Part shown: in pieces, positions 2,227-17,925 of the stretch | Numbering within the stretch: position 1 is the first letter of the stretch | Layout: each line of letters begins with the position of its first letter | Sequence record: OR234014.1 | Direction: 5' to 3' (one strand) | DNA: 64,000 nucleotides | Source: Staphylococcus phage SAC | Position numbers and translations under genes: made by a program | Notes under the pieces: model-generated | The model's database searches: none | What the model was told of the DNA's origin: nothing | The model's input: only the letters and a program-made list of their open reading frames with translations

Positions 2227-2464
2227 TATAACGTACTAAAGAGTAACCTCCTGCCCATCTTGACTCTACATGCTCAATATACATAACTGTAGAATCAGTG
2301 TAAGGAAATCCCGACTCTTCTACAATGATAGGCTCCTTATTATCTCTAGCTTTTTTAAAACGTTCTGCTATTTCAATATAAGGTAAGGGCAATACATCAT
2401 TTGTATTAGCCCTACCTAATGCTTCTTTAACACTATTAATATTTCTATCTATTAGATTATTCAT
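2111..2464 (-). CDS. hypothetical protein
   Basis: ORF of 117 aa in the gene array directly downstream of recA exon 2. Confidence 0.4.
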   Translation of the reverse strand: MNNLIDRNINSVKEALGRANTNDVLPLPYIEIAERFKKARDNKEPIIVEESGFPYTDSTVMYIEHVESRWAGGYSLVRYNGSEVKVPKTIHYSDIYVSNDVHRIKIVFEGAHPYEES

Positions 2465-3479
2465 TTACATCTTCCTTAGTCTCTTTATTAGTAGAGCTAA
2501 GCTCTTCGTAGTAATCTTGTAATGCTTTAAACTCTTCTAATTGAGTAGTGTCTACTTTTGTATTGTTTAAAGGTGCATACTTATGAGGGAAATTCTCGTG
2601 GTAAACTCTACTAAATAATTCTAAGTATAATTCATGGTTGTCCATTAATGTCGGTACCCAATCTTTATCATATTTTTTAATTTCTTCACCATTTAACGTA
2701 ACATAATTACGCCATGTTCCTTTAGTAATTAAACCACGCTCAACGGCTTCTTTATAGATAGTATGATAAGGGTCAACACCGTTTAATTGAATAGTATCTT
2801 CATCAGAACCTACTTCATAACCTGATAATAAATCAACTTCCGCTTTTTGACCAGGTCTAGATAGCTTAGACTTCTTAGTCTCAATACGCATAACATGACC
2901 TTTATACGTAGGTTTACCTGTCATAGCATCATTCTGTTTTAATTCTGATTCTTTACCTTTAGATACTTTAATACGTAAACTAGCACCATGTTCAAAAGCT
3001 CTTCCTCCTGTAGACTTAATAGGGTCATCATAAGGATTACTCATATTTAAATTATCACGTGCTTGGTTAATAACAATTAATCCTGTATTTGTATCATTAA
3101 GCTTAGGTGAAATAGCATTTACTACTTTTTGTGTACTTGTCGCTTTCGTTCCAAGTTTTTTATGGTCTACTCCTGCATCAATTTCATCTTGTGTACGTGT
3201 AGCTCCTAGGGAATCCCAAATGAACAAAATAGGTACGCCTGGTGCTTTCTCATTAAATGTATCAATCCAGTATTCTAACTCTTTACCTACGGTTTCTACT
3301 GATAGTTCAGTAACATTTTTAAGTCTACCTTCACCTGACTGTATTGAGAACAATTTAGATACGTCTACACCTAACTGTTCCATACGTTGGTTATCCGCTG
3401 TTCCTTCAATGTCAATCCAAACTGTAATAACTCCTAATTGTGTTGCTACTCTAGATAAGTGTACTGCAAAAGTCGATTT
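2457..3479 (-). CDS. recA: RecA/UvsX-like recombinase, exon 2 (begins KSTFAVHLSRV..., before the annotated Met)
   Basis: The frame is open from 3479. KST completes the Walker A motif GLTGSG|KST with exon 1. ILFIWDSLGAT is a RecA-like core. The intron ends in G at 3480. Confidence 0.75.
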   Translation of the reverse strand, partial: KSTFAVHLSRVATQLGVITVWIDIEGTADNQRMEQLGVDVSKLFSIQSGEGRLKNVTELSVETVGKELEYWIDTFNEKAPGVPILFIWDSLGATRTQDEIDAGVDHKKLGTKATSTQKVVNAISPKLNDTNTGLIVINQARDNLNMSNPYDDPIKSTGGRAFEHGASLRIKVSKGKESELKQNDAMTGKPTYKGHVMRIETKKSKLSRPGQKAEVDLLSGYEVGSDEDTIQLNGVDPYHTIYKEAVERGLITKGTWRNYVTLNGEEIKKYDKDWVPTLMDNHELYLELFSRVYHENFPHKYAPLNNTKVDTTQLEEFKALQDYYEELSSTNKETKEDVNE

Positions 3480-4839
3480 CAGTTACTACCCCTAGTTTCC
3501 TAGTACTTTAACACTAACTTAATAGTGGGCTTAGACTATATCTTTAATTGCCTGGTATGCAAGTTTTTGTTTTCGGTCTATATGAATATTATTATCTCGA
3601 TATAATGTTTTCATTAATTTTTTAGCTTTTTTACCTGTATAACCTATTCTATAAGAGGTAGAAGTTTTAGATATTGTAGGACATTTAAAACCTAATAAGT
3701 CTTCAATCCAACTACCTACTTCTTTTAAAAATTCAGGATGATTGTTAACTAAAGTTATTGACCATCTATTATTATAACATCCAATAGAACCATCACCATC
3801 AAACAATCCTCTTAAGTAATGTTTCCTTAAATCATAAGGTATGTCTTGTGTTAACCAATCTGTTTTTTTAGTTTTCATAGGTATTATACCATATTTAGCT
3901 AAATCATTACATAGTTTTTCATCGGTAACACTAAAAGTATACGTAGAATTTTCATTTTTTATATAATCTCTTTTTCTATGAGATTCATAAATTTTACTGT
4001 CTGAATTCAATTCTTTTTGAACTCTTTCTACTATTTCTTTATCAATTAACTCTAGTGTTAAGTAACATTGACCTTCTCTTCTATATCTAACACAACCGTC
4101 AGCCATCAATAAACCTAAAATATATGCTTTCTCTTCAGTATCAATTACTTCAAAGAAATCTTTATTAATATTTCTATTAACTCTCCTAGGTTGATAGTAA
4201 GATGTATCAATACCAAAGTCTCTTAATATTTTACTTATCTCTCTTGCATGTGTTGTATAGACTGCTTTTATCTCTGCAATAGTCATAGACTCCTCAGTGT
4301 ACATTCTTAAAATATCTTGTTTTTGTTTACTAGTCCATCTTCTCTTGCTATTTGTGTCAATATTAAACTCATCTAGTACTTTTTTAATTGTAAAGTAATG
4401 TGCATTATACTTTTTTTGTATTTCACTAAATTTCTTACCTTCTTGAAAGGATTTCACTATATCTTGTTTTTCTTCATTAGACCATACTCGTTTTACCATA
4501 TTATACTACTCTCCATTTTAAATAGATTTCGTAGGCAATTCCCACGTACTTCGGTTTCCCTACTCTACTCAGTTACTCACTAATACTTCTCAATATTAGC
4601 TACCTTTTCGATAGTCGTTGAACCTTCTCCATTTTACAGGAGCTTGGATGCTGATTACCTACACTATATAATATAACAGTTTAATAACTCGTTATACCAT
4701 ATAACTCATATACTTGTTATTTTTAACATTCACGCTTACCGTTTCCAGTTACGTTGTAGTTAACAAGTCTTTAAGGCTTCCCAGCAATTCACGTGGATTT
4801 GTAATAACTCATTATAAGCCATTGTGGCTATTTAAGGTA
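3480..4839 (-). mobile_element. Group I intron in recA carrying a LAGLIDADG homing endonuclease gene
   Basis: R element GTTCAACGACTA (plus-strand 4611-4622, reverse complement) and S element AAGATATAGTCT (3526-3537, reverse complement). The 5' exon ends in U (GGT). The internal guide sequence GCCAC pairs with exon AGTGGT. Omega-G lies at 3480. Confidence 0.75.
3531..4499 (-). CDS. LAGLIDADG homing endonuclease (two-motif), intron-encoded
   Basis: Two LAGLIDADG motifs: AYILGLLMADGCV and YLRGLFDGDGSI. Confidence 0.8.
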   Translation of the reverse strand: MVKRVWSNEEKQDIVKSFQEGKKFSEIQKKYNAHYFTIKKVLDEFNIDTNSKRRWTSKQKQDILRMYTEESMTIAEIKAVYTTHAREISKILRDFGIDTSYYQPRRVNRNINKDFFEVIDTEEKAYILGLLMADGCVRYRREGQCYLTLELIDKEIVERVQKELNSDSKIYESHRKRDYIKNENSTYTFSVTDEKLCNDLAKYGIIPMKTKKTDWLTQDIPYDLRKHYLRGLFDGDGSIGCYNNRWSITLVNNHPEFLKEVGSWIEDLLGFKCPTISKTSTSYRIGYTGKKAKKLMKTLYRDNNIHIDRKQKLAYQAIKDIV

Positions 4840-5052
4840 ACCACTACCAGTTAATCCGTAAACTTCTGTAAGTCTTCCTAGAGGAATACCTCCACCTAAA
4901 ATTCTATCATATTGTGGAATCATAGTAGGAATGATATTCTTAATATCTGCTCTATTACTATCTGATAGTAAAGTTAAACCTAATTCTTTACCTAAGTCAA
5001 TAGTATTTAAATTTGTAGTATCTACTTCTTTACCTTTTTTTGCTCTAGCCAT
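4840..5052 (-). CDS. recA: RecA/UvsX-like recombinase, exon 1
   Basis: ...ILGGGIPLGRLTEVYGLTGSG ends inside the P-loop. The annotated YLK-stop tail is intron read-through. Confidence 0.75.
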
Positions 5053-6867: not shown

Positions 6868-7557
6868 CTATATAACTTTGAAACTGTCAATATTATTTTT
6901 AATATATTCCGTTTTTTGTTTGTACTGCTCTTCAGTTAGTTTATCTGATTCATAGTAGTCTTTGATTTGTTGTAAGGCTAATTTATACTTAATATATCCT
7001 TTATACGAATTAAATTGCTTTATTAACTCTTCGTTGTATTCTACCATATCATTATATGTTAATCCTATCTCTATATCTGCATCTATAGGATACTGTCTTA
7101 ACTCACCATTAATTTTTATTTTTAAGAAATCATAAGGAAGGTTCTCCATTACATGGACAATAACTTTAGCCATAATATTAACTTCTTCAGGAGGTGAGTC
7201 TACTACAATACTATCATGAACAGTAGCTACTAACTTCGATTTCATATTCTTATTTTGAATAAAGTCGTCAATATAAGTAATAGCCATGTTAGTAAGGTAA
7301 CCACCTGTACCTTGAATAATCGTGTTAAAGGACTGTCTAAGACCCTCATTTTTAATCTTTTTATCTCTAGATTGTGCTGAGTGTATATATCTTCTGTGTC
7401 CATTCATTGTTTCTACATATCCATGTTTTTGAACAAACTCATGAGTTTCATCTATAGACTTCTTAATAGCAGGTTTATTAGAATAAAACTTATTAAATAT
7501 TTCAGTAGCTTCATCAACTGTCATATTATTTTTACCTGCAAACGAAAACTCTGACTC
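6868..7557 (-). CDS. polA: DNA polymerase I family (PolA), exon 2 (begins ESEFSFAGKNN before the annotated Met)
   Basis: Contains motif C (KLVATVHDSIVVD). Upstream in frame, ESEFSFAG follows omega-G at 7558. Confidence 0.7.
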   Translation of the reverse strand, partial: ESEFSFAGKNNMTVDEATEIFNKFYSNKPAIKKSIDETHEFVQKHGYVETMNGHRRYIHSAQSRDKKIKNEGLRQSFNTIIQGTGGYLTNMAITYIDDFIQNKNMKSKLVATVHDSIVVDSPPEEVNIMAKVIVHVMENLPYDFLKIKINGELRQYPIDADIEIGLTYNDMVEYNEELIKQFNSYKGYIKYKLALQQIKDYYESDKLTEEQYKQKTEYIKNNIDSFKVI

Positions 7558-8637
7558 CGTTTATACCCTCGGTTTCCCGATATTTATTAGGGGACTAGAC
7601 TATATCTTAAGTAAATACGTTACTATCTACTTCTAGGCTATTCCATGTAGGTATGAGCTACATGTACTCTACTCGGTTATATTGCAATAAGCCCTCTCGG
7701 CGTAAAGCTCACCTTTTGATAGTCGTTCGATAAAATAATTTAAGTGTTTAAGTGTAATCAAATCGTTCTCTTTTCTCTATTTTGAATGTAATCCCATAAC
7801 AATCTTCACCGGTTTCCATTTTTCTAAAGTTAGTGCCTGACGTAGGTATATTTAGTCTCTTTAGTAGCTTAGTTTTTACTCTATCATAATCAATTTCCAC
7901 ATGATTCTTATAAGCAACATAGTGAGGTGCATAAAGTTTAGAAGGGTTTTCTACAGGTTGATAATTATATTCTTGTAGTGTTTTAAAAACCCAGTTCTTA
8001 TGATGTTTTCTTTCCCCTCTAAGAACTGCAGAAATATGGCTTTGAATTAAGTTATGTTCCTTAGCAAATTTAGACTGATTGAAGAATATATATTCTTTAC
8101 CTGTAGGGTCTATACCTAATATCTTTTTACTTCTTGAAGGTACAAATCCTAAGTTCTCTTCTCTAGTAGCCCATTTACATTTATCTAAGCTATATACTTT
8201 ATTACCTAGTTCTTTAATATCCTTATCTAACACTAACTCACCATTTTTATACTTCTCTAAACTCCAACCATCAATTAACTCTACATCCTTAAGAAAGTTA
8301 TTAAAATTATGCCATCTATCGTCTACTGTTATTCCTAGTAATCCATAATATTTATATTCCTTACATTTAGGATTATAACATCTGTCTATCATATGAGACC
8401 ATACATGAGCTAATTTAGAATATAGCTTATTGTGATTATATCTTTCTCCTATTTTAAATTCTATTTAAATCATCCTTACTTATTAAATTACACTTAAATT
8501 ATTCTACACAGGATTAGCATTTTAAAGCCTTCCCTGTTAGCATAGTTCTTAACTACCATTTCCTGTAGCTCCTAACGTGAACTATACACCCTATACTCAA
8601 TAGGTTTACCTAGTTTTACTACGGCTATATTTTGTTA
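7558..8637 (-). mobile_element. Group I intron in the DNA polymerase gene carrying an HNH homing endonuclease gene
   Basis: The internal guide sequence GCCGTA pairs with exon TACGGT. R-like CGAACGACTA (7722-7731, reverse complement) and S element AAGATATAGTC (7597-7608, reverse complement). The 3' end GGGTATAAACG is identical to tail-tube intron 1. Confidence 0.75.
7748..8392 (-). CDS. HNH homing endonuclease (I-HmuI-like), intron-encoded
   Basis: NPKCKEYKYYGLLGI...SLDKCKWATREENLG matches the HNH_3-type motif of phage homing endonucleases. Confidence 0.7.
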   Translation of the reverse strand: MIDRCYNPKCKEYKYYGLLGITVDDRWHNFNNFLKDVELIDGWSLEKYKNGELVLDKDIKELGNKVYSLDKCKWATREENLGFVPSRSKKILGIDPTGKEYIFFNQSKFAKEHNLIQSHISAVLRGERKHHKNWVFKTLQEYNYQPVENPSKLYAPHYVAYKNHVEIDYDRVKTKLLKRLNIPTSGTNFRKMETGEDCYGITFKIEKRERFDYT

Positions 8638-11160
8638 ACCGTAAATTAAACCAAAGGCTACAGCTTTACTGGCTTGTCTTTCTTCTGCTGTTACGTCCTT
8701 CATACTTTTACCATACATAATACTTGCCGTATTTTTATGAATATCTTGTCCTGTTAAAAACATCTCTAACATTTCTTTATCATCTGTATATAGTGCCGTA
8801 ATACGCATCTCTAAGGCACTATAGTCGGCTTGTAAAATTACACCATCTTTAAATCTAGAGATAAAAGAACGTTTAATAGGGTGGTGATAATCAAACTTAT
8901 TTATATCAGATGTATGAGCAGGTAATTGTTGCATATTAATGTTTGAACTACTTAATCGACCTGATGCAGTTCCTGTACTATTATAGTTACCATGTAAATT
9001 ATGTGTATTCTTATTTACTCTTTTAGGTAATTTCTTAGTAAAAGAATTTCTTTTAGTTTGCAAAGAGGCATAATAAATAAGTAAGTCTAGTAGCTTTTTA
9101 TTATCTTCATTCTCAACCAAAGATAATGCCATCTTTATAGACTTAGTATCTGTTTTGTAGTCTTTCCATGATAACTCATCTTCTTTAGTACTATTACTGA
9201 AAGGTTTATCCTTAACTGTCTCTTTACTATAAGGTAACTGTATACCTAAAATGCTATATAATACTTCACCTTTATGGTCTCCTGAGCTTGGTTTGAACTT
9301 CCAACCTTCATCTTTAAATTTAGCTCTATACTCATGTATTTCTTTGTCTCTATCAGATGGTTTCTTCTCATGTTCTGCTAGGGCTAGTTGGTATAAATTA
9401 TACCTAGTTTCTTCAAATTCTTGGATAGCCCAATGCTCTCTAATTTCTTGGTGGGTTTTTTCCATCTCATTAATATAAAATTCATCATTTTTATGCATGT
9501 ATTCTAAGTCACAATGTAAACCATTTGATTGTATTCTAGCTAATGTTCTAATTAATCTAGGGTAACTTATTGACATTAAGTTCAATGCTTTAGGTCTATT
9601 TTGTTCTTTTAACTTTTCAATAACATCACAGTATATTCTTCTACAGACATCGGTGTCACCACTGGCATAAGGATGCATAAGCTCTAATGGAATCCAATCA
9701 TAATTAAAGTCACCTCCATCTACCTCATTAATAACTTTAGTATTGTCCTTATACGTGTTAATTAAATTAATAGATGTACCTAATACATAATCTTTAGCTT
9801 TGTTAGATAAACTCATATACTCGGGTGATGATTCGGCTACTTCTTTAAATTCAGAATCCATAAGCATATTCTTTGTAATAACCTCAGGTGTTAGTTTTAA
9901 CTCTAAGTATCTTTTTTGCTCTTCTGTGATACCATAATACTTATCTTCATCTGTTAGTTCTATATCAATGTTATCGAGTTTATTTTTCAACCAAGTATCA
10001 TACTCATTTGATTTTATGTTATATTCTTTCTTAGCAACTTTTTTATTTTCTTTTTTAATCTCTTTTAGTTTATCTGATAAGAATCTTAGTAGCTTCAATA
10101 CATACCACTCTTTAAAATCTTCAAGAGGTTTGTCATATCCTCCTACATCTGTTACTTCGTAAGCAAGGTCTGATAATCTTAGAGACTCTGCTTGTTCTTG
10201 TGTTACAGCTAAATACCAACCTACCTTAGTGTCTTGATTATTTTCAAAGTCTGTGAAACCTTGTGTTGTCATTAGAAAATTTATATCATAAGTAGCATTA
10301 TGTAGTACCTTAATGTCTTCTTTGCTAGCTACCCATTCTTTTAATAAGGAAAGAATTTCATCAATATCTTGTTGTCCATTCTCCCAAGTAAAGTCTGATT
10401 TATATAAAGGTATTGTAACACCTTGACCATTTTCCCAACTCATTGATAATACTAAGGGTTTACTTCCTTCTCTATCAGGACTAAGTGAGTTAGTTTCTAA
10501 ATCCCATGCGGTAATGTCTACACCGTCATGATTATCATTCTTTACTTCTTTATTAAATATTTCTCTTACACGCTCAATACTTGTAACAAGTTCATACTTA
10601 ACTTCTTTAGGTTTAAATACGTCTTCACCTTGTTCTACAAACTTACCTAATAACTTAAGGTCAGCTACTACATGACGCTCACTATTCTTATTAACGTTTG
10701 TGTACTCTATGCTATAAGTAGGTAATACCCAAACATCATGTTTTTTATCTTCACTAGTAATAGTTACTTTATTAGGTACACCTCTAACTTTACCGATAGC
10801 TGATACATTTAATAAATATTTAACCCCTAGCTTACCTAAAGGAATAATAATATCGTACTTATTGTTTATGATTATTTGACTCATTCTTTCATAGTAAGGT
10901 TTAACTTCAGATAACTTAACGTCTTGGTACTTAATTGTTTTACCATAGTTATTCTTAATAGGTGTAGGTACTTTAGGATATAAAAAATCAATGTCATAAT
11001 CCTTTGTGCTCCTATCTCTATTAATACCAGAAATATTAGACAATAGTTGTTTTAGTACTCTACCATTAGGTGTATTTAATAGTACATTCTTAACACTACC
11101 ATCATTACTAACTGAAAAGTGTTCCTCTCTGATATAGTCGTATAAAATTAAAACTTTCAT
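8638..11160 (-). CDS. polA: DNA polymerase I family, exon 1 (3'-5' exonuclease and polymerase domains through motif B)
   Basis: Ends ...ERQASKAVAFGLIYG (motif B, RxxxKxxxFGxxYG). The last codon is GGT. Confidence 0.8.
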
Positions 11161-11548: not shown

Positions 11549-12151
11549 CTAAATCTTAATCTTTCTTTGTCTTTTTAATTCAGTAAGTAGGTCTTCTATT
11601 ATTTCATAATCTTTATTTTCTTTACTAGCAAGAATATAGATATACATTTTCCACACGGACAAAGAAACCCTTAATTTGTCTGCAAAGTCAAGCGTATACC
11701 TAGGTTTTAGTTTATAAGCTTCTTTATCATACGTGTAGTACTTACCTTGTTTAGCGTCTATAGAACTAATACGAGGGAATGATAGATGAACCTCGTCTAC
11801 ATTCGTTTTAACATCGTATAAACTTCTAATAATATCGTAAGGATTGACGTAAGGAAATACAACTGAAATATCAATAATGACTTTTGTTCCCATGAAACTC
11901 AAAGCTATATTATCCATATCTTTGTTACTAAACTTACTACGCATTCTATATACAACTGATGATTTAGGGTGAGCTGATAAATCTTTAAGCACATAGTAAG
12001 GAATTACTGAATCGGTATAGTATGTTACTTGTCCACCGTGCTTGCATATTTTTTCAATCAACTTATCATTGTTATACTTCTCATTAAATAGCATGTAATG
12101 TTTATCATCTCTTAGTATATACCTAGTTGATTTATTAGCTAAGTTGTCCAT
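11549..12151 (-). CDS. hypothetical protein
   Basis: ORF of 200 aa. Confidence 0.4.
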   Translation of the reverse strand: MDNLANKSTRYILRDDKHYMLFNEKYNNDKLIEKICKHGGQVTYYTDSVIPYYVLKDLSAHPKSSVVYRMRSKFSNKDMDNIALSFMGTKVIIDISVVFPYVNPYDIIRSLYDVKTNVDEVHLSFPRISSIDAKQGKYYTYDKEAYKLKPRYTLDFADKLRVSLSVWKMYIYILASKENKDYEIIEDLLTELKRQRKIKI

Positions 12152-12357
12152 ATCTTTTTCTATCTCATCTTCATTTAAAGTTGTAACTTTAATAGCTTTA
12201 GATAATTCATCTTTGTTTTTTACATGTATATTAAAATATCTATCACTATTATATATAGTTAATGTTTTATTTTTTGCGATAACTATTCATCCTTTCATGA
12301 AAAAACCTACTACCTTTTACTAATATAAGTATAGCATAAGTAGTAGGTAATTACAAA

Positions 12358-12690
12358 TTAAAGTAAATCTAATTCCATTAAGTTTTTAGGTGTTACTTGG
12401 TCTTCGAACTTCTTAGCAAGTTCCCCATCTTTATATCCAATAAGTACAGGTGTACTCATAATGTCAAATAACTTGACCGCTTTTTCTCTATCTACATCTT
12501 TATCATCTAAGTTAATAACATAAACAGGTTTAGTAATATCTCCTTCTGCTTCGAAAAGAGGAATCACACTTTTTAAAATTTCACATTTAGCACACTCATC
12601 TTGTGTAACCATGACAATAACATCCTGTTTTTGTCTGATTGTTGTATTTAACTCTAATAAACTATTCACTTTTTCCATTTTCTGTATCAT
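12358..12690 (-). CDS. thioredoxin/glutaredoxin-like redoxin (likely RNR electron donor)
   Basis: CxxC motif (DECAKCE), about 110 aa, adjacent to the nrd genes. Confidence 0.5.
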   Translation of the reverse strand: MIQKMEKVNSLLELNTTIRQKQDVIVMVTQDECAKCEILKSVIPLFEAEGDITKPVYVINLDDKDVDREKAVKLFDIMSTPVLIGYKDGELAKKFEDQVTPKNLMELDLL

Positions 12691-12988
12691 CCTTTTCTAG
12701 TGTGTCAATAATATCTTTAAATGTTTCAATATCAGCTACATGTGTTAACTGCACCATACCATCAGCTTTAAATAACTTCAATGTACCTTCGTATATAAGA
12801 ATGTATACATATGTATTATAAATAAACTCTAGCTGAAATTTACTGGATTTACTATCTGCTTTAGTATCATCTCCCCTATTAAACATCTTAATAGGGTCTT
12901 GTACATTACTTACTTGTGAGAAAATATCATTTGATTTGAATATATCTTCAGTTCTACTTAGTAATCCAAACGCTTCTTTTTTATTCAT
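12662..12988 (-). CDS. hypothetical protein
   Basis: ORF of 108 aa. Confidence 0.35.
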   Translation of the reverse strand: MNKKEAFGLLSRTEDIFKSNDIFSQVSNVQDPIKMFNRGDDTKADSKSSKFQLEFIYNTYVYILIYEGTLKLFKADGMVQLTHVADIETFKDIIDTLEKDDTENGKSE

Positions 12989-13000
12989 TTAGTCACCTCT

Positions 13001-13936
13001 TTAGGCTTCACAATTAATACAAATTTTAGATAAATTGAATTGTTGTGATGCATTTGTACCATGTTGATAATACAATGACTTAATACCATTAGACCATGCA
13101 AAGAGATAAAGTTCATTTAACTCCTCTGCTGTAACATGTTTAGGGTTAATCATAATGTTTATAGATTGTCCTTGGTCAATATATTTTTGTCTTGTAGAAG
13201 CTTGGTCTAATATATTATATTGATTAATTTCACCATATGTTTTAAATACTTCCTTTTCATAATCACTTAAGAAAGTTAGGTGTTGAACGGAACCATCATT
13301 GTCCCTAATACTCTCAATAACTTTTTTATTGTCCTTTCCTTTTTCTTTTAATAGTCTTTTAAGGTAAGGATTAATCATAGTTTTCTTTACTTTAGCAGTG
13401 TCTACAACGTAATAATTACTCATAAAAGGTTCAATTGATTTAGAAACTTGACCTAGGATAAATGAGCTCGAAGTCGTAGGAGCTACCGCCATCAAACACG
13501 AATTCCTTCTACCATACCCTTTAAGAATAGTAGGCTCTCCATAAAGTTTAGCTAACTGCTCACTAGCTTTATAAGTTTTTTCTTTTAATAATTTAAATAT
13601 CTCTTCATTAATTTGACTAGCTTTAATACTTTCAAAAGGTATGAGTTTTGATTGTAGGTATGAATGATATCCAAGAACGCCTATTCCTAAGGCTCTGTTC
13701 TCAACAGAAAAGTTATAAGCTCTCTCCATAAATTTAAATGCTTCTTGTTTATCTTTTTCAGCTGAGTCTCTTAGATATTCTAAGTCTCTAATAAACTCAG
13801 ACATAACAGCATCTAAAAAGTAAACAAGTGTCTCTACAGCATCCGTGTGTTTCCATTCATCATACTTAACAAGGTTCATACTAGATAGGTCACATACAAA
13901 TGACCAATCTTCTTTATTAGGTAACATAATTTCACT
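13001..13936 (-). CDS. nrdE: ribonucleotide reductase large subunit, exon 2 (begins SEI-MLPNKEDWSFVC)
   Basis: In-frame SEI precedes the Met. WSFVCDLSSMNLVKYDEW is the conserved region following NLCSEI. Omega-G at 13937. Confidence 0.75.
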   Translation of the reverse strand, partial: SEIMLPNKEDWSFVCDLSSMNLVKYDEWKHTDAVETLVYFLDAVMSEFIRDLEYLRDSAEKDKQEAFKFMERAYNFSVENRALGIGVLGYHSYLQSKLIPFESIKASQINEEIFKLLKEKTYKASEQLAKLYGEPTILKGYGRRNSCLMAVAPTTSSSFILGQVSKSIEPFMSNYYVVDTAKVKKTMINPYLKRLLKEKGKDNKKVIESIRDNDGSVQHLTFLSDYEKEVFKTYGEINQYNILDQASTRQKYIDQGQSINIMINPKHVTAEELNELYLFAWSNGIKSLYYQHGTNASQQFNLSKICINCEA

Positions 13937-14775
13937 CCTACATGTTCAATAGTGGTCGTTAATCACTACCAGTTCTCTAATTAACAATATTTATAGTTAG
14001 GGAATTTTTCAGAATTACATCTTCTGGTTAATGTATTTCTGTTTATTCCTAGCTCTTCAGAGCATATACCCATATTTTTATAAACTACGCCATCAACAAT
14101 AACTTTTTTAGCATTAGCGCTTTCTTTACCATACATCGGATTGTTTTTTCCTCGTCTATCCATTATATTCCACCCAAAACCTATCTCCATATTATAACCT
14201 TTTTTTACAGATTCGTACATGTCTATAAAAATTTGCTCTACCATGTAAGCAAACTTTTTATCCTCTGTACTAAAAGTGTATAATTCTTCTACATAAAAAT
14301 TCTCTTCACCATGTTTCATCATTGATTGGTGTAAATTAGTTGTTGAGCCTATCTTAGCTTTTCTAATATGATTTTTAAATCTATGTTGAACTGTTTTTGA
14401 TGTAATTCCGATGTATATTTTATTATTGTTTTTGTTTGTAATTTTATAAATATGGTACTCCATTTTCGACCCTCTTAATTATTATTGTTAATATGAACTT
14501 CTATATGTTTCCATATAGAGCAGACTATATCATCTTCCTTAATAAGGAAGTCCACCATTTCGATTTAAATAAGATTTACTTGATTATTACTCAATACTTA
14601 TACCACTTGGCTCTAACCTTATCCCTTCACTTATGTGAATAGGTTACGGATAGTCGTTAGGCATTTACAGATTTATAATCTGATTTAGCACGGTGTTGTC
14701 GTATATTTTAACTTAGATATTCACCGTTTAGATGGATTTTTCGATAGTAATTACTTACTAAAGGTGCAAATTTTT
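13937..14775 (-). mobile_element. Group I intron in nrdE/nrdA carrying a GIY-YIG homing endonuclease gene
   Basis: Exon 1 ends ...NLC (TGT) and exon 2 starts SEI, splitting the catalytic NLCSE motif. R-like CTAACGACTA (14651-14660, reverse complement) and S element GATATAGTCTG (14521-14531, reverse complement). Confidence 0.75.
13981..14463 (-). CDS. GIY-YIG homing endonuclease, intron-encoded
   Basis: IYKITNKNNNKIYIGIT matches the GIY-(10)-YIG motif. Confidence 0.75.
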   Translation of the reverse strand: MEYHIYKITNKNNNKIYIGITSKTVQHRFKNHIRKAKIGSTTNLHQSMMKHGEENFYVEELYTFSTEDKKFAYMVEQIFIDMYESVKKGYNMEIGFGWNIMDRRGKNNPMYGKESANAKKVIVDGVVYKNMGICSEELGINRNTLTRRCNSEKFPNYKYC

Positions 14776-15522
14776 ACACAAATTTGAGTTATTAATAGTC
14801 AATCCTTTGTCTTTATATACATCTACTGTATTACTATTTGCATTATCATGAAAGAAGATATAGGGGTATCCTATTTGTGTTCTTCTTGTTAATACTTTAG
14901 CCCATGTTTTTCTTTTTTCTTTGTCCCCATTAATCATGTCTAATAACCAATCATCAGTAACTGTTACCGCATGTGTTAAGTTTTGAATTGGATTACCTTC
15001 GGTACCAATCTCTAAAAACTCGTCAATATCTTTGTGTTCTATAGGTAGATAAGGGCTAAATCTTCCTCTTCTTTGGCTACCCTGACTTATCGTATCTGTC
15101 ATTTGCTCAAATAGCTTCATAAAATGAACGGAACCACTTGTCAGTCCATTATCAGTGATTTCTGAGCCTCTAGGTCTGATGTTACCGAAGTAACCACTTG
15201 TACCACCACCGTATTTACTCATCATACCTACTTCACTAGCAGTATTAAGTATCGATGGTATAGTATCATCTACCCAACTACCAAAACAACTAATACTAAA
15301 TCCTCTATCTTTCCCGAAATTAGACCATATAGGACTGGATAAGGAATAATAACCTTTACTCATATAATCATAAAACTTGTCAGAAAACCCATCAATACCT
15401 AAAATATCTTCAGCGTAATCTGCAATATCTTTAATTCTTTGTTCTGGTGTTTCACCATCACTTAAATAACCACGTTCTAGAAAAACTCTAGAATCATTAT
15501 TTAACCATTCAAAATTACTCAT
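14776..15522 (-). CDS. nrdE: ribonucleotide reductase large subunit, exon 1 (short N-terminus, no ATP cone)
   Basis: LSSPIWSNFG...SISCF (first catalytic Cys region) through ...NNSNLC. There is a stop codon immediately upstream of the ATG. Confidence 0.75.
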
Positions 15523-15537
15523 CTATATACACTGCCT

Positions 15538-16875
15538 TTATATCATTTTTAGTCTTAAAATAGCGTTTACTTTATCTTTAGTAACTCGTTTACCAGTATT
15601 TTCAAAATCAGATTCCGTTGAAAAAATAGTATCTTCCGTTACAGAATTACTAAATTTTGTATAGTTTACAGAACGTTTAGATAAAAAGTCCGTTAACTTA
15701 GTACTAATAACTTCATCATCAAACCATGACACTTCACTTAGTAACTCTTCATCAACATCAAAAAGTTTAGTATACCCAACAGCTACTAGAGAGTTATTAA
15801 GCCTATTTTTAATAAATTCTTGTACTACTTTCTTAGGTAAGAACTCTAGTTCCCCATCTTCATACATCCAATCAAGTAACCGTGTTTCTGATTCATAAGA
15901 TTTTTTACAGGCTGTGTAAACTGCATCTTCCATTTCTTTGTTGAACCACTCAGGTCTTTCTTCTCTAAGAATATTAATGATTTCTGTTCCAAATAATCCA
16001 TGGATTTGCTCTTCTTTAGATGTAGCTTCAATAGCATTTGATAAACCTCTAAATAAGTTTTTATATTTATTAAAACTCATCATAATTAAAAATTGACTAA
16101 ATAAAGATACATGTTCAATAAATATAGAAAATAATAAAACAGATAGTACGTAATCTCTATCATCCTCACTCTTACTTAGTTTTACATGCATCGCTAACTC
16201 ATCAACACGTTCTTTAAGAGCAGGAATATCGTCAATTGTTTTAAACTCCTCATTCAAACCTAAAATCTCTAATAAATGTGAATAAGCGTCGGCATGACGT
16301 GCTTCACTCTCACTAAAAGTTGCACCCACAGCTCCAGTTTCCCATTTAGGCATTCTATGATATAGGTCACCCCAGAAAGTCTTTACTGCTACTTCTACTT
16401 GGGCAATTGCTAGCATAGCTTTTTTAATGGTCATTTGCTCATTGTATTTAACGTTATTCTTATAGTCTTGAATATCTGATGTATAGTTAAACTCAGTGTG
16501 TACCCAGTAACTTTGGCGTATAGCATCTTTATATTCTAATAATTCAGGGTATTCATAGGGTTTTAATTCTTTTCTTGGTTTGAATAAGTCTCTTTTACGC
16601 TCTCTTTTCTTTTTATCCCTATATAAAATAAAAGCTTTAGCAGTATCTTTATACATACTACTAAATAAAACTTCTTCTACTATATCTTGTATTAATTCTA
16701 CAGTAATGATAGTGTCTTGTTCTTCTAGTAAAGAGTCTACGTCATCTACAAGAGAATCAATAACATCTTCAATATATTCTTCTGTTTCTGAGTTGGCTCT
16801 TAAAATAGCATTAGTAACTTTACTTAAATCATAATCTACAACGGAACCATCACGTTTTTTTATTTGTGTAATCAA
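15538..16875 (-). CDS. nrdB: ribonucleotide reductase small (R2) subunit with an N-terminal ATP-cone domain
   Basis: N-terminal 90 aa match the ATP-cone consensus (IKKRDGSVVDYDLSKVTNAIL...AKAFILYRDKKK). The rest is a ferritin-like R2 (FSESEARHADAYS, IEATSKEEQIHGLFG). Confidence 0.7.
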   Translation of the reverse strand: MITQIKKRDGSVVDYDLSKVTNAILRANSETEEYIEDVIDSLVDDVDSLLEEQDTIITVELIQDIVEEVLFSSMYKDTAKAFILYRDKKKRERKRDLFKPRKELKPYEYPELLEYKDAIRQSYWVHTEFNYTSDIQDYKNNVKYNEQMTIKKAMLAIAQVEVAVKTFWGDLYHRMPKWETGAVGATFSESEARHADAYSHLLEILGLNEEFKTIDDIPALKERVDELAMHVKLSKSEDDRDYVLSVLLFSIFIEHVSLFSQFLIMMSFNKYKNLFRGLSNAIEATSKEEQIHGLFGTEIINILREERPEWFNKEMEDAVYTACKKSYESETRLLDWMYEDGELEFLPKKVVQEFIKNRLNNSLVAVGYTKLFDVDEELLSEVSWFDDEVISTKLTDFLSKRSVNYTKFSNSVTEDTIFSTESDFENTGKRVTKDKVNAILRLKMI

Positions 16876-16889
16876 CTAGTATCCCTTCC

Positions 16890-17498
16890 TTATATACCAT
16901 CAAGTAAATCATCAATCAACTTATCTTCTTTTTTACTAACTTTAGATATTTTAGATTTGACAACTCTATATGGTTTAATCTCTTTTTTGTTGTAGCAAGA
17001 TATAATATAAGAAGGTGTTAAGTTAGTCAACCCATCTATCGTAGTTATAAGAACATCATAAAAATGTTTGTCTTTTCTAACATTCTCTATAATAAAATCT
17101 GTTCTCATAATAGGGTACTCTTCATCTCTTAACTTAACATATACATCTTCTATATAAGGTAATGCTACATATGACTGTGCTCTATTTCTTGTAAATATTA
17201 AACAAGGAGTTTTATTAACTTGCAAACTATCTCCTATAACTTGTTCCCACCATGTATGAGGTTCTTTATTATTAAGTAGAACATTATCCATAATCCAATT
17301 TTCTCTATGTTTACACTCTACAACTAATGGAAAATTAGACTCTAAAGGTGCTACAATGTCACCGACAGCATTATTGTTAGCTCCCCATGATGCACCTCCT
17401 GATTGTGGAGACCTACTAAAAGGATAACCCCACCAATCAGAAAGTTCTTTGGCAATCTTTCTTTCGAATACATCACCTTTTTTTTTACTATTTGTCAT
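16890..17498 (-). CDS. PD-(D/E)XK-family nuclease-like protein (possible resolvase/recombination nuclease)
   Basis: GDIVAP...VVECKHR arrangement (D...E-x-K). Confidence 0.35.
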   Translation of the reverse strand: MTNSKKKGDVFERKIAKELSDWWGYPFSRSPQSGGASWGANNNAVGDIVAPLESNFPLVVECKHRENWIMDNVLLNNKEPHTWWEQVIGDSLQVNKTPCLIFTRNRAQSYVALPYIEDVYVKLRDEEYPIMRTDFIIENVRKDKHFYDVLITTIDGLTNLTPSYIISCYNKKEIKPYRVVKSKISKVSKKEDKLIDDLLDGI

Positions 17499-17925
17499 GT
17501 TTCTTCAACTGCACTACTTTTTCATTATCTTCTTTTGCTTTATGCTCTTCTTGTTTTTTTCTTACTTCTTCTTGTTTTTCTTCTAAATACTTTTCACGTT
17601 TTTCTTTTAATTTAAGTTGCGCCTTCTCTACTTGCTCAGTAGTTACATCTAGGTTATCTTCCATAACAATCATTAACAAATCAATAGCATTAAAAGCATC
17701 ATTAAAGGCAGATGCATACTCTTGAACTGTAACGGCATTAATTGCTCGTGCAATTCTAGTAGCCTCATCTAATGATACACTACGTGCTCCAATACGATGT
17801 AATTGCTTAGCAGTGTCCTCAGTTAATTCCTTGCCTTCTACTGTTCCTTGTGTAATAGCTTCTAACCACATGTCCATATCTTTTTGTGAAATACCTTTTG
17901 TATGTGTACTAATATTTTTTTCCAT
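17488..17925 (-). CDS. hypothetical protein
   Basis: ORF of 145 aa with a charged coiled-coil C-terminus. Confidence 0.4.
   Translation of the reverse strand: MEKNISTHTKGISQKDMDMWLEAITQGTVEGKELTEDTAKQLHRIGARSVSLDEATRIARAINAVTVQEYASAFNDAFNAIDLLMIVMEDNLDVTTEQVEKAQLKLKEKREKYLEEKQEEVRKKQEEHKAKEDNEKVVQLKKHDK

Follow-up and report, generated by a model that had tools for sequence, protein, structure and literature searches.

A class Id ribonucleotide reductase with the ATP-cone on its small subunit in a Silviavirus phage of Staphylococcus

A 64,000-nucleotide stretch of DNA from Staphylococcus phage SAC (OR234014.1), referred to here as the window, carries between positions 13001 and 16875 the genes of an aerobic ribonucleotide reductase (RNR), nrdB for the radical-generating small subunit (beta) and nrdA for the catalytic large subunit (alpha). 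Profile matches and a structural model place the ATP-cone domain on NrdB and none on NrdA, an architecture that is nearly certain on these grounds. The whole picture put forward here, in which the region is a beta-then-alpha operon for a class Id (NrdAi/NrdBi) RNR of a Silviavirus phage with an ATP/dATP switch on NrdB, is held at a probability of about 80%, proposed mechanism included. It should be noted that both architecture and mechanism have been known since 2018, when Rozman Grinberg et al. described the same arrangement in eLife and noted such NrdBs in "viruses and bacteria" (PMC5794259), and that the protein is already in public databases. No literature linking Silviavirus with an ATP-cone or with class Id was found in the library searched. 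The finding leaves the current understanding of RNR regulation unchanged, and its useful outputs are a corrected classification for a therapeutic phage group, a documented cassette swap and a C-terminal extension of NrdB.

Positions 12300-17500 share 99% nucleotide identity with the Staphylococcus phages Stau2, Romulus, Remus, StAP1/SAP6 and others, and the phage is a Silviavirus (Herelleviridae, Twortvirinae) of the Romulus/Remus/Stau2 type. The minus strand holds 64 of the 68 non-overlapping open reading frames (ORFs) called in the window, all genes of the RNR region among them (Table 1). The upstream gene of the pair is nrdB, and just 15 nt separate its stop codon from the ATG of nrdA.

NrdB joins an ATP-cone to a class Id core

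Pfam divides NrdB into two domains, with the ATP-cone profile (PF03477) aligned to residues 4-91 over positions 2-88 of its 88 (E 8.3e-19, 68 bits against a cutoff of 25.8) and the small-chain profile Ribonuc_red_sm (PF00268) aligned to residues 102-375 (E 4.9e-53). The initial annotation, made from the letters and their translations, had read positions 15538-16875 as an ATP-cone fused to a ferritin-like R2 domain; the profile search it had proposed matched both families, and the peptides it quoted are present in the translation. The TTG start codon of nrdB is directly preceded by a strong Shine-Dalgarno sequence (AAGGAAGGGA). The identical TTG start is found in Stau2, Romulus and the Nosocomiicoccus homolog, and in a contig of a related phage an ATG lies two codons ahead of the shared TTG.

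In a search of solved structures, the closest relative of NrdB was the NrdBi of Leeuwenhoekiella blandensis (PDB 5OLK), aligned over residues 2-418 with 506 bits (E 6e-151), followed by a cone-less construct of the same protein (6SF4, 456 bits), 8DQ3 (379 bits) and 6CWO (308 bits). The class Id betas of Aggregatibacter and Flavobacterium johnsoniae are among these next matches, and any other RNR subclass scored 77 bits or less. Residue mapping gave 46% identity to the L. blandensis protein in the cone and 62% in the core. The metal-site and signature residues that define NrdBi (PMC5794259, PMC6754362) can be followed one by one through this mapping: the ligands E161, E191, H194, E254, E289 and H292 correspond to E170, E200, H203, E263, E298 and H301 of L. 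blandensis, and the class Id signature K165, W168, Y198 and T285 corresponds to K174, W177, Y207 and T294, the lysine being that of the helix B loop. All six ligands and these signature residues are invariant across an alignment of 48 homologs. The phage protein has a tyrosine (Y198) at the radical position and a threonine (T285) that matches the residue which, in L. blandensis, keeps the non-radical tyrosine away from the metal site (PMC5794259, PMC6754362).

The same 48-sequence alignment was used to build an AlphaFold2 (AF2) model of NrdB, which reached a mean predicted local distance difference test score (pLDDT) of 81. A Foldseek search with this model returned the four chains of 5OLK on top, with target-normalised template modelling (TM) scores of 0.85-0.90 and 56-57% identity, and class Id betas after them. 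The alignments to the 5OLK chains cover 391-395 columns, or 99-100% of the length of each chain, and superposition of the core on L. blandensis gave TM scores of 0.96-0.97. Judged by sequence and by model, the small subunit is of the NrdBi, or class Id, type.

A short NrdA without a cone

Joining the two nrdA exons (splice 14776|13936) gives an NrdA of 560 residues. Pfam detects large-chain domains in the ORFs of both exons. Against the class Id alpha 6DQX, exon 1 spans residues 29-275 and exon 2 spans residues 279-573 (E 1e-105), and the three residues that lie between the two alignments (SEI) are encoded by AGTGAAATT, immediately upstream of the ATG of exon 2. The resulting junction, NSNLC|SEIMLPNKED, is the same as in uninterrupted 560-aa homologs such as P0121 (88% identical) and the NrdA of phage vB_SurM-PSU4. 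The exon boundaries of the initial annotation (14776-15522 and 13001-13936, about 560 aa) were exact. In the PDB, NrdA is most similar to two class Id alphas, 6DQX, the top match of both exons, and 6DQW, and the spliced protein scored 727.5 bits against TIGR02510 ('NrdE-prime', a family of short alphas; cutoff 602), covering profile positions 14-560 of 560. The catalytic set is complete and consists of C79, N247, C249, E251, C264, Y538/Y539 and C555/C558. The first catalytic cysteine (SISCF) is C79, in agreement with the earlier count of about 78 residues ahead of it.

A Pfam scan of NrdA found no ATP-cone, and PF03477 was absent from the 120 best NrdA homologs (0 of 120). In each of the ten uninterrupted homologs checked at the N-terminus, the protein begins with the same residues (M..FEWLN..SR.FLERGYL). 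This shared N-terminus, together with the 15-nt gap between nrdB and nrdA, argues that no hidden upstream exon exists that could supply an N-terminal domain, and the description of the large subunit as cone-less stands. By its sequence, the large subunit is an NrdAi, the minimal class Id catalytic subunit without a cone. With the beta closest to 5OLK and the alpha closest to 6DQX and 6DQW and above the TIGR02510 cutoff, the earlier placement of the pair in the NrdAi/NrdBi group is upheld. According to Burnim et al., cones on beta are nearly confined to operons in which beta precedes alpha, and the median NrdAi is 564 aa long (PMC9669993); operon order and NrdA length at the phage locus fit this pattern.

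The arrangement can be compared with known class Id systems. The L. blandensis enzyme (5OLK, 6SF4/6SF5) is like that of the phage in its N-terminal NrdB cone, its short cone-less NrdA and the same ligands and signature residues. The phage NrdB differs from that of L. blandensis by 27 additional residues at its C-terminus, by shorter cone loops and by Phe and Leu in the places of Met80 and Ile93; the source is a phage of a Firmicute rather than a marine flavobacterium, and its nrdA carries a group I intron. The Facklamia ignava enzyme (Grx::ATP-cone::NrdBi) is likewise a Firmicute-associated class Id RNR with a beta-borne cone. It has a dATP off-switch via beta4 and a Mn2(IV,III) cofactor (PMC6187632, PMC6754362), both of which would be expected in the phage enzyme by analogy. 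In F. ignava a glutaredoxin is fused ahead of the cone, whereas the phage protein has no such fusion and a separate thioredoxin-like gene lies two genes downstream. Cone-less class Id enzymes (F. johnsoniae, Actinobacillus ureae, Aggregatibacter; 6CWO, 6DQW, 6DQX, 8DQ3) have the same minimal alpha and a beta core that is 44-53% identical, but differ from the phage enzyme in lacking an ATP-cone on either subunit.

A predicted ATP/dATP switch on NrdB

In L. blandensis, ATP leads to beta2 and an active alpha2beta2, and dATP, bound two per cone, leads to beta4 and the inactive complexes alpha2beta4 and alpha4beta4 (PMC5794259). The F. ignava enzyme behaves in the same way toward dATP and ATP (PMC6187632). 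The class Id cofactor, Mn2(IV,III), is assembled with superoxide and does not depend on an NrdI-like activase (PMC6754362), and a study using small-angle X-ray scattering and cryo-electron microscopy proposed that the asymmetric active complex is blocked sterically (PMC8350387).

Following L. blandensis and F. ignava, the R2 core of the phage NrdB would assemble a Mn2(IV,III) cofactor using superoxide, with no flavodoxin activase and no tyrosyl radical. The radical would pass from Y405 in the beta tail by way of Y538/Y539 to C249 of alpha, and C79/C264 would be re-reduced via C555/C558 by a phage or host thioredoxin. With ATP on the cone, beta would be a dimer and form the active alpha2beta2. 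Binding of dATP, two per cone, would cause the cones of two dimers to pair via helices 3 and 4 (D64, E67, F71, K80, I83, L84, R86), and the beta4 tetramer formed by the paired cones would hold alpha2 only in the non-productive alpha2beta4 or alpha4beta4 complexes.

The cone of the phage protein is predicted to fold as a beta-hairpin and four helices (AF2, pLDDT 80-93). At the dATP-tetramer interface, D64, E67, K80, I83 and R86 are identical to D73, E76, K89, I92 and R95 of L. blandensis, and the two remaining positions are exchanged conservatively (M80 to F71 and I93 to L84). The cone residues K7, R8, K19, E60, D64, E67, Y85, R86 and R93 are invariant in the 48 homologs. By analogy with the characterized enzymes, an ATP/dATP switch that acts on the phage NrdB cone through beta2 and beta4 is probable. 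Several points weigh against this. The cone is only 46% identical to the characterized one and has the M80 to F71 and I93 to L84 exchanges at the interface; the C-terminal extension follows the alpha-binding tail, is not present in the studied enzymes and could alter subunit affinity or regulation; and, beyond the architecture, everything said of the phage members is transferred by homology. Additionally, certain phage RNRs escape dATP shut-off, that of phage T4 being an example. Sequence identity is a poor guide in either direction, because the cones of F. ignava and L. blandensis are 28% identical and behave alike (PMC6187632).

The two interface residues unlike those of L. blandensis and the conserved extra C-terminal helix that is unique to the lineage also speak for a cone that binds adenine nucleotides without serving as a dATP off-switch, either in ATP activation only or in a different oligomer, perhaps with the participation of the extension, and by our own reasoning unrestrained deoxynucleoside triphosphate (dNTP) synthesis would benefit a lytic phage. 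This alternative is unlikely, as the majority of residues at the interface and in the cone core are unchanged or exchanged conservatively and do not vary among the 48 homologs, and both characterized beta-borne cones, at 28% identity to each other, are dATP off-switches via beta4 (PMC5794259, PMC6187632). Inactive or truncated cones are found in other RNRs, for example in B. subtilis (PMC9669993), and the phage cone could in principle be a functionless, decaying relic that came along with an acquired gene. Such a relic is highly improbable given a profile match that spans positions 2-88 of 88, a confidently predicted fold (AF2), basic and acidic cone residues that are invariant in homologs about 60% identical overall, retention of the cone in all 61 phage records that carry it, and a near-identical cone recombined onto a diverged core in one phage lineage. 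An ordinary class Ia (Fe-tyrosyl) NrdAB, as given by most GenBank annotation and by database names such as 'ribonucleotide reductase of class Ia (aerobic), beta subunit', is the least credible reading, since its models fall far under their cutoffs (NF006576, 28.5 against 346 bits; NF006578, 87 against 813 bits), E. coli-type R2 and R1 structures match distantly, the first metal ligand is Glu and not Asp, and the class Id Lys and Trp are present.

In NCBI, NrdB clusters with the SAP6 protein at 90% identity and usually goes by the name 'class Ia beta subunit', which is at odds with the NCBIfam scores. A class Ib assignment (NrdI/NrdE/NrdF) was also rejected, with 55 bits against a cutoff of 355 for TIGR04171 (NrdF), 142 against 750 for TIGR04170 (NrdE) and no NrdI. 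The preferred class Id reading calls for a correction of annotation, in that Silviavirus and related Staphylococcus and Mammaliicoccus phages carry a class Id, probably manganese-dependent, RNR and not one of 'class Ia'.

Another Twort-like lineage, represented by loci L008 and L009, has the gene order resolvase-Trx-NrdB-NrdA. Its NrdB (P0089, gene 8001-9263) is 97-100% identical to that of a Mammaliicoccus phage over cone residues 1-85 and 50-80% identical in the core, and it ends in a canonical tail. A cone that is near-identical on a core that has diverged points to a recombination joint at the cone/core border, and the movement of the cone as a unit onto a diverged core argues that it is under selection as a unit. 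For the RNR field, these phages offer compact and well-sampled natural variants of the beta-borne ATP-cone, this swapped cone among them, and also a C-terminal extension of NrdB.

A C-terminal extension of NrdB

In L. blandensis, Bacillus infantis and Erysipelothrix, the class Id beta stops at the canonical ...DDLF; the phage NrdB goes on for a further 27 residues. Of the 120 best NrdB homologs, 90 have the extension, 27 have a canonical tail and 3 could not be scored. The extension ends in a conserved motif, K..VNxxLR[LM][RK]M[LI]. In the AF2 model, its helix at residues 433-444 comes after a disordered stretch, with pLDDT of 56-67 as block means. The lineage that carries it comprises Staphylococcus and Mammaliicoccus phages, many uncultured contigs and Nosocomiicoccus, the latter in a phage-like module.

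The extension is the sole element at the locus that lies outside the coverage of the published enzymes. That the extension, an amphipathic helix, gives class Id RNRs a new functional element is offered as a tentative suggestion, more doubtful than probable. If true, the extension may serve as a second anchor to NrdA or as a contact to the cone, altering the tightness or reversibility of subunit association, and would modify the dATP switch in the phage enzymes. NrdA has an insertion of 12 residues relative to 6DQX (RDLEYLRDSAEK...). A coupling of this insertion to the NrdB extension was considered and rejected, since the insertion is also present in the alpha P0238, the inferred partner, paired solely through contigs of equal length, of a beta with a canonical tail (P0097).

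Exchange of the RNR cassette and distribution

The initial annotation had contrasted the locus with the NrdI/NrdE/NrdF genes usually annotated in Twort-like staphylococcal phages and had seen no NrdI nearby, and both statements are borne out. The Kayvirus-type phage vB_Sau_Clo6 and the Sepunavirus SEP1 have, in the same slot, the order resolvase-NrdI-NrdE-NrdF-hyp109-thioredoxin. Among the neighbouring ORFs and the remaining ORFs of the window's replication module, Pfam found no NrdI, NrdE, NrdF or additional cone. Tblastn of the window and the remaining Stau2 genome, which is 99% identical, gave no match to the Clo6 NrdI (best E 1.6), and no second RNR emerged there from tblastn with the Clo6 NrdI, NrdE and NrdF or from the annotation of the remaining Stau2 genome.

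The Clo6/SEP1 cassette occupies the same position between a PDDEXK resolvase and the hyp-109/thioredoxin genes, but it is class Ib, has the alpha-then-beta order, needs the NrdI activase and has no ATP-cone. Flanking proteins of the window and Clo6 (resolvase, thioredoxin, a 198-aa protein and an HU-like protein) are 75-79% identical; Clo6 NrdE matches the window NrdA at 20-27% over parts, and NrdF has no significant match. With flanks this similar and RNR genes of different subclasses, the RNR cassette has therefore been exchanged at a fixed locus, and the sequence comparison suggests that the class Id cassette replaced the NrdI-NrdE-NrdF cassette of the sister genera. As a consequence, two therapeutic groups of staphylococcal phages should differ in their metal and activase needs and in the feedback control of dNTP supply.

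Full-length NrdB with a cone occurs in 61 phage records, and among the records listed all are Staphylococcus or Mammaliicoccus phages; for comparison, the neighbouring resolvase occurs in 340 Staphylococcus phage records. Phages of Rhizobium, Flavobacterium, Maribacter and others have the cone-less NrdB core only. The cone-NrdB arrangement is the norm for the genus Silviavirus and related Staphylococcus and Mammaliicoccus phages. Among bacteria, many Patescibacteria genomes have a full-length cone-NrdB at 53-58% identity and Pasteurellaceae have cone-less homologs. The closest named bacterial homolog, at 64-65% identity and with both cone and extension, is from Nosocomiicoccus. At this locus (L007; Nosocomiicoccus ampullae CP079109.1, 1128917-1146251), nrdB lies amid genes for PolA, DNA methylases, an HNH-split nrdA, thioredoxin, nucleoside deoxyribosyltransferase and dUTPase, and the locus is probably an integrated phage-like element. 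An origin of the phage genes from a cellular RNR of the Staphylococcaceae was set aside, as the Nosocomiicoccus homolog sits in a phage-like module and so is not clear evidence for it.

The group I intron and other insertions in nrdA

The interruption of nrdA scores 63.7 bits (E 1.1e-15) against the group I intron family RF00028, whose gathering score is 50; the match lies at 14501-14785 and takes in model positions 1-253, the full model. An Rfam scan over 12000-17500 (5.5 kb) returned nothing at E <= 1 and a scan over 13900-14800 (0.9 kb) returned the intron, so that the first negative was a filter effect. Exon 1 ends in ...UGU, the final U of which pairs in P1, a helix built with the last exon bases, and the intron ends in ...AGG. 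The site lies between the codons for C249 and S250, right behind the codon for the thiyl-radical cysteine. As nrdA is interrupted by a group I intron, its mRNA is predicted to require splicing. The intron is 100% identical across 31 phage records, and its ORF (13981-14463) matches the GIY-YIG domain (PF01541, E 3.5e-9) and the I-TevI DNA-binding domain (I-TevI_DNA-bd, PF20987, E 3.9e-7) in Pfam. Group I introns with homing endonucleases in T4 nrdB and nrdD and in Twort nrdE resemble this one in that they interrupt an RNR gene at its most conserved active-site motif (T4: PMC1865063). Unlike them, the intron here is in a class Id nrdA, at the C249/S250 site, with the endonuclease ORF 3' of the ribozyme core.

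Two further insertions are seen in related records. An intein of 323 aa (C...GN|S; locus L001, 3959-5692) is present in Stau2, Romulus and most other Silviavirus records at a site that corresponds to window position 15078/15079, between the nrdA codons for G148 and S149. The window and 11 records (MR003, RP15, V1SA20/22, CIFT_MFB_MRSA*, St1.CM) are intein-free. In the intein-carrying alleles, the 100 nt adjoining the site are 88-89% identical, and this divergence beside the site looks like co-conversion. Records of the Romulus/Remus type have an extra insertion of ~1 kb with an HNH endonuclease in the second nrdA exon (L002 2838-3554, Romulus), which the window does not have.

Genes of the locus

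Table 1. Features of the RNR locus, with positions in the window
Feature	Position	Strand	Basis
nrdB, radical-generating subunit (NrdBi / class Id type by sequence and model), 445 aa, TTG start, ATP-cone::R2 fusion	15538..16875	-	PF03477 + PF00268; full-length match to 5OLK
ATP-cone domain, NrdB residues 4-91	16603..16866	-	Pfam PF03477
Ferritin-like R2 core with dimetal site, NrdB residues 102-375	15751..16572	-	Pfam PF00268; ligand alignment
C-terminal extension of NrdB, residues 419-445 (27 residues)	15541..15621	-	Homolog comparison; AF2
nrdA exon 1, residues 1-249, last codon for thiyl-radical Cys C249 (NLC)	14776..15522	-	Pfam Ribonuc_red_lgN + lgC; 6DQX alignment
Group I intron, 839 nt, ORF 3' of ribozyme core	13937..14775	-	Rfam RF00028
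Intron-encoded GIY-YIG homing endonuclease, 160 aa, I-TevI-like	13981..14463	-	Pfam PF01541 + PF20987
nrdA exon 2, residues 250-560, with E251, C264, YY538-539 and C-terminal CINC redox pair	13001..13936	-	6DQX alignment; TIGR02510
108-aa ORF (phrog_2797), directly downstream of nrdA	12662..12988	-	phrog_2797, E 2e-46
Thioredoxin-like protein, CAKC motif	12358..12678	-	Pfam Thioredoxin; phrog_22

Two genes downstream of the RNR, the thioredoxin-like gene (12358-12678) encodes a protein that matches Pfam Thioredoxin at the cutoff (E 4.8e-5) and the phrog_22 thioredoxin domain with E 3e-10. Solved thioredoxins match it weakly, and it is 75% identical to the thioredoxin of Clo6. We infer that this protein is a candidate reductant for the C-terminal cysteines of NrdA. 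The 108-aa ORF at 12662-12988 had no match in Pfam and NCBIfam searches. It adjoins the RNR genes in both cassette types, following NrdF in Clo6, and is 46% identical between the window and Clo6, with flanking genes at 75-79%.

Mobile elements split further replication genes elsewhere in the window, on the same strand: a RecA/UvsX-like gene (2457-5052) is interrupted by a LAGLIDADG ORF (3531-4499) and a family A DNA polymerase gene (6868-11160) is interrupted by an I-HmuI-like ORF (7748-8392).

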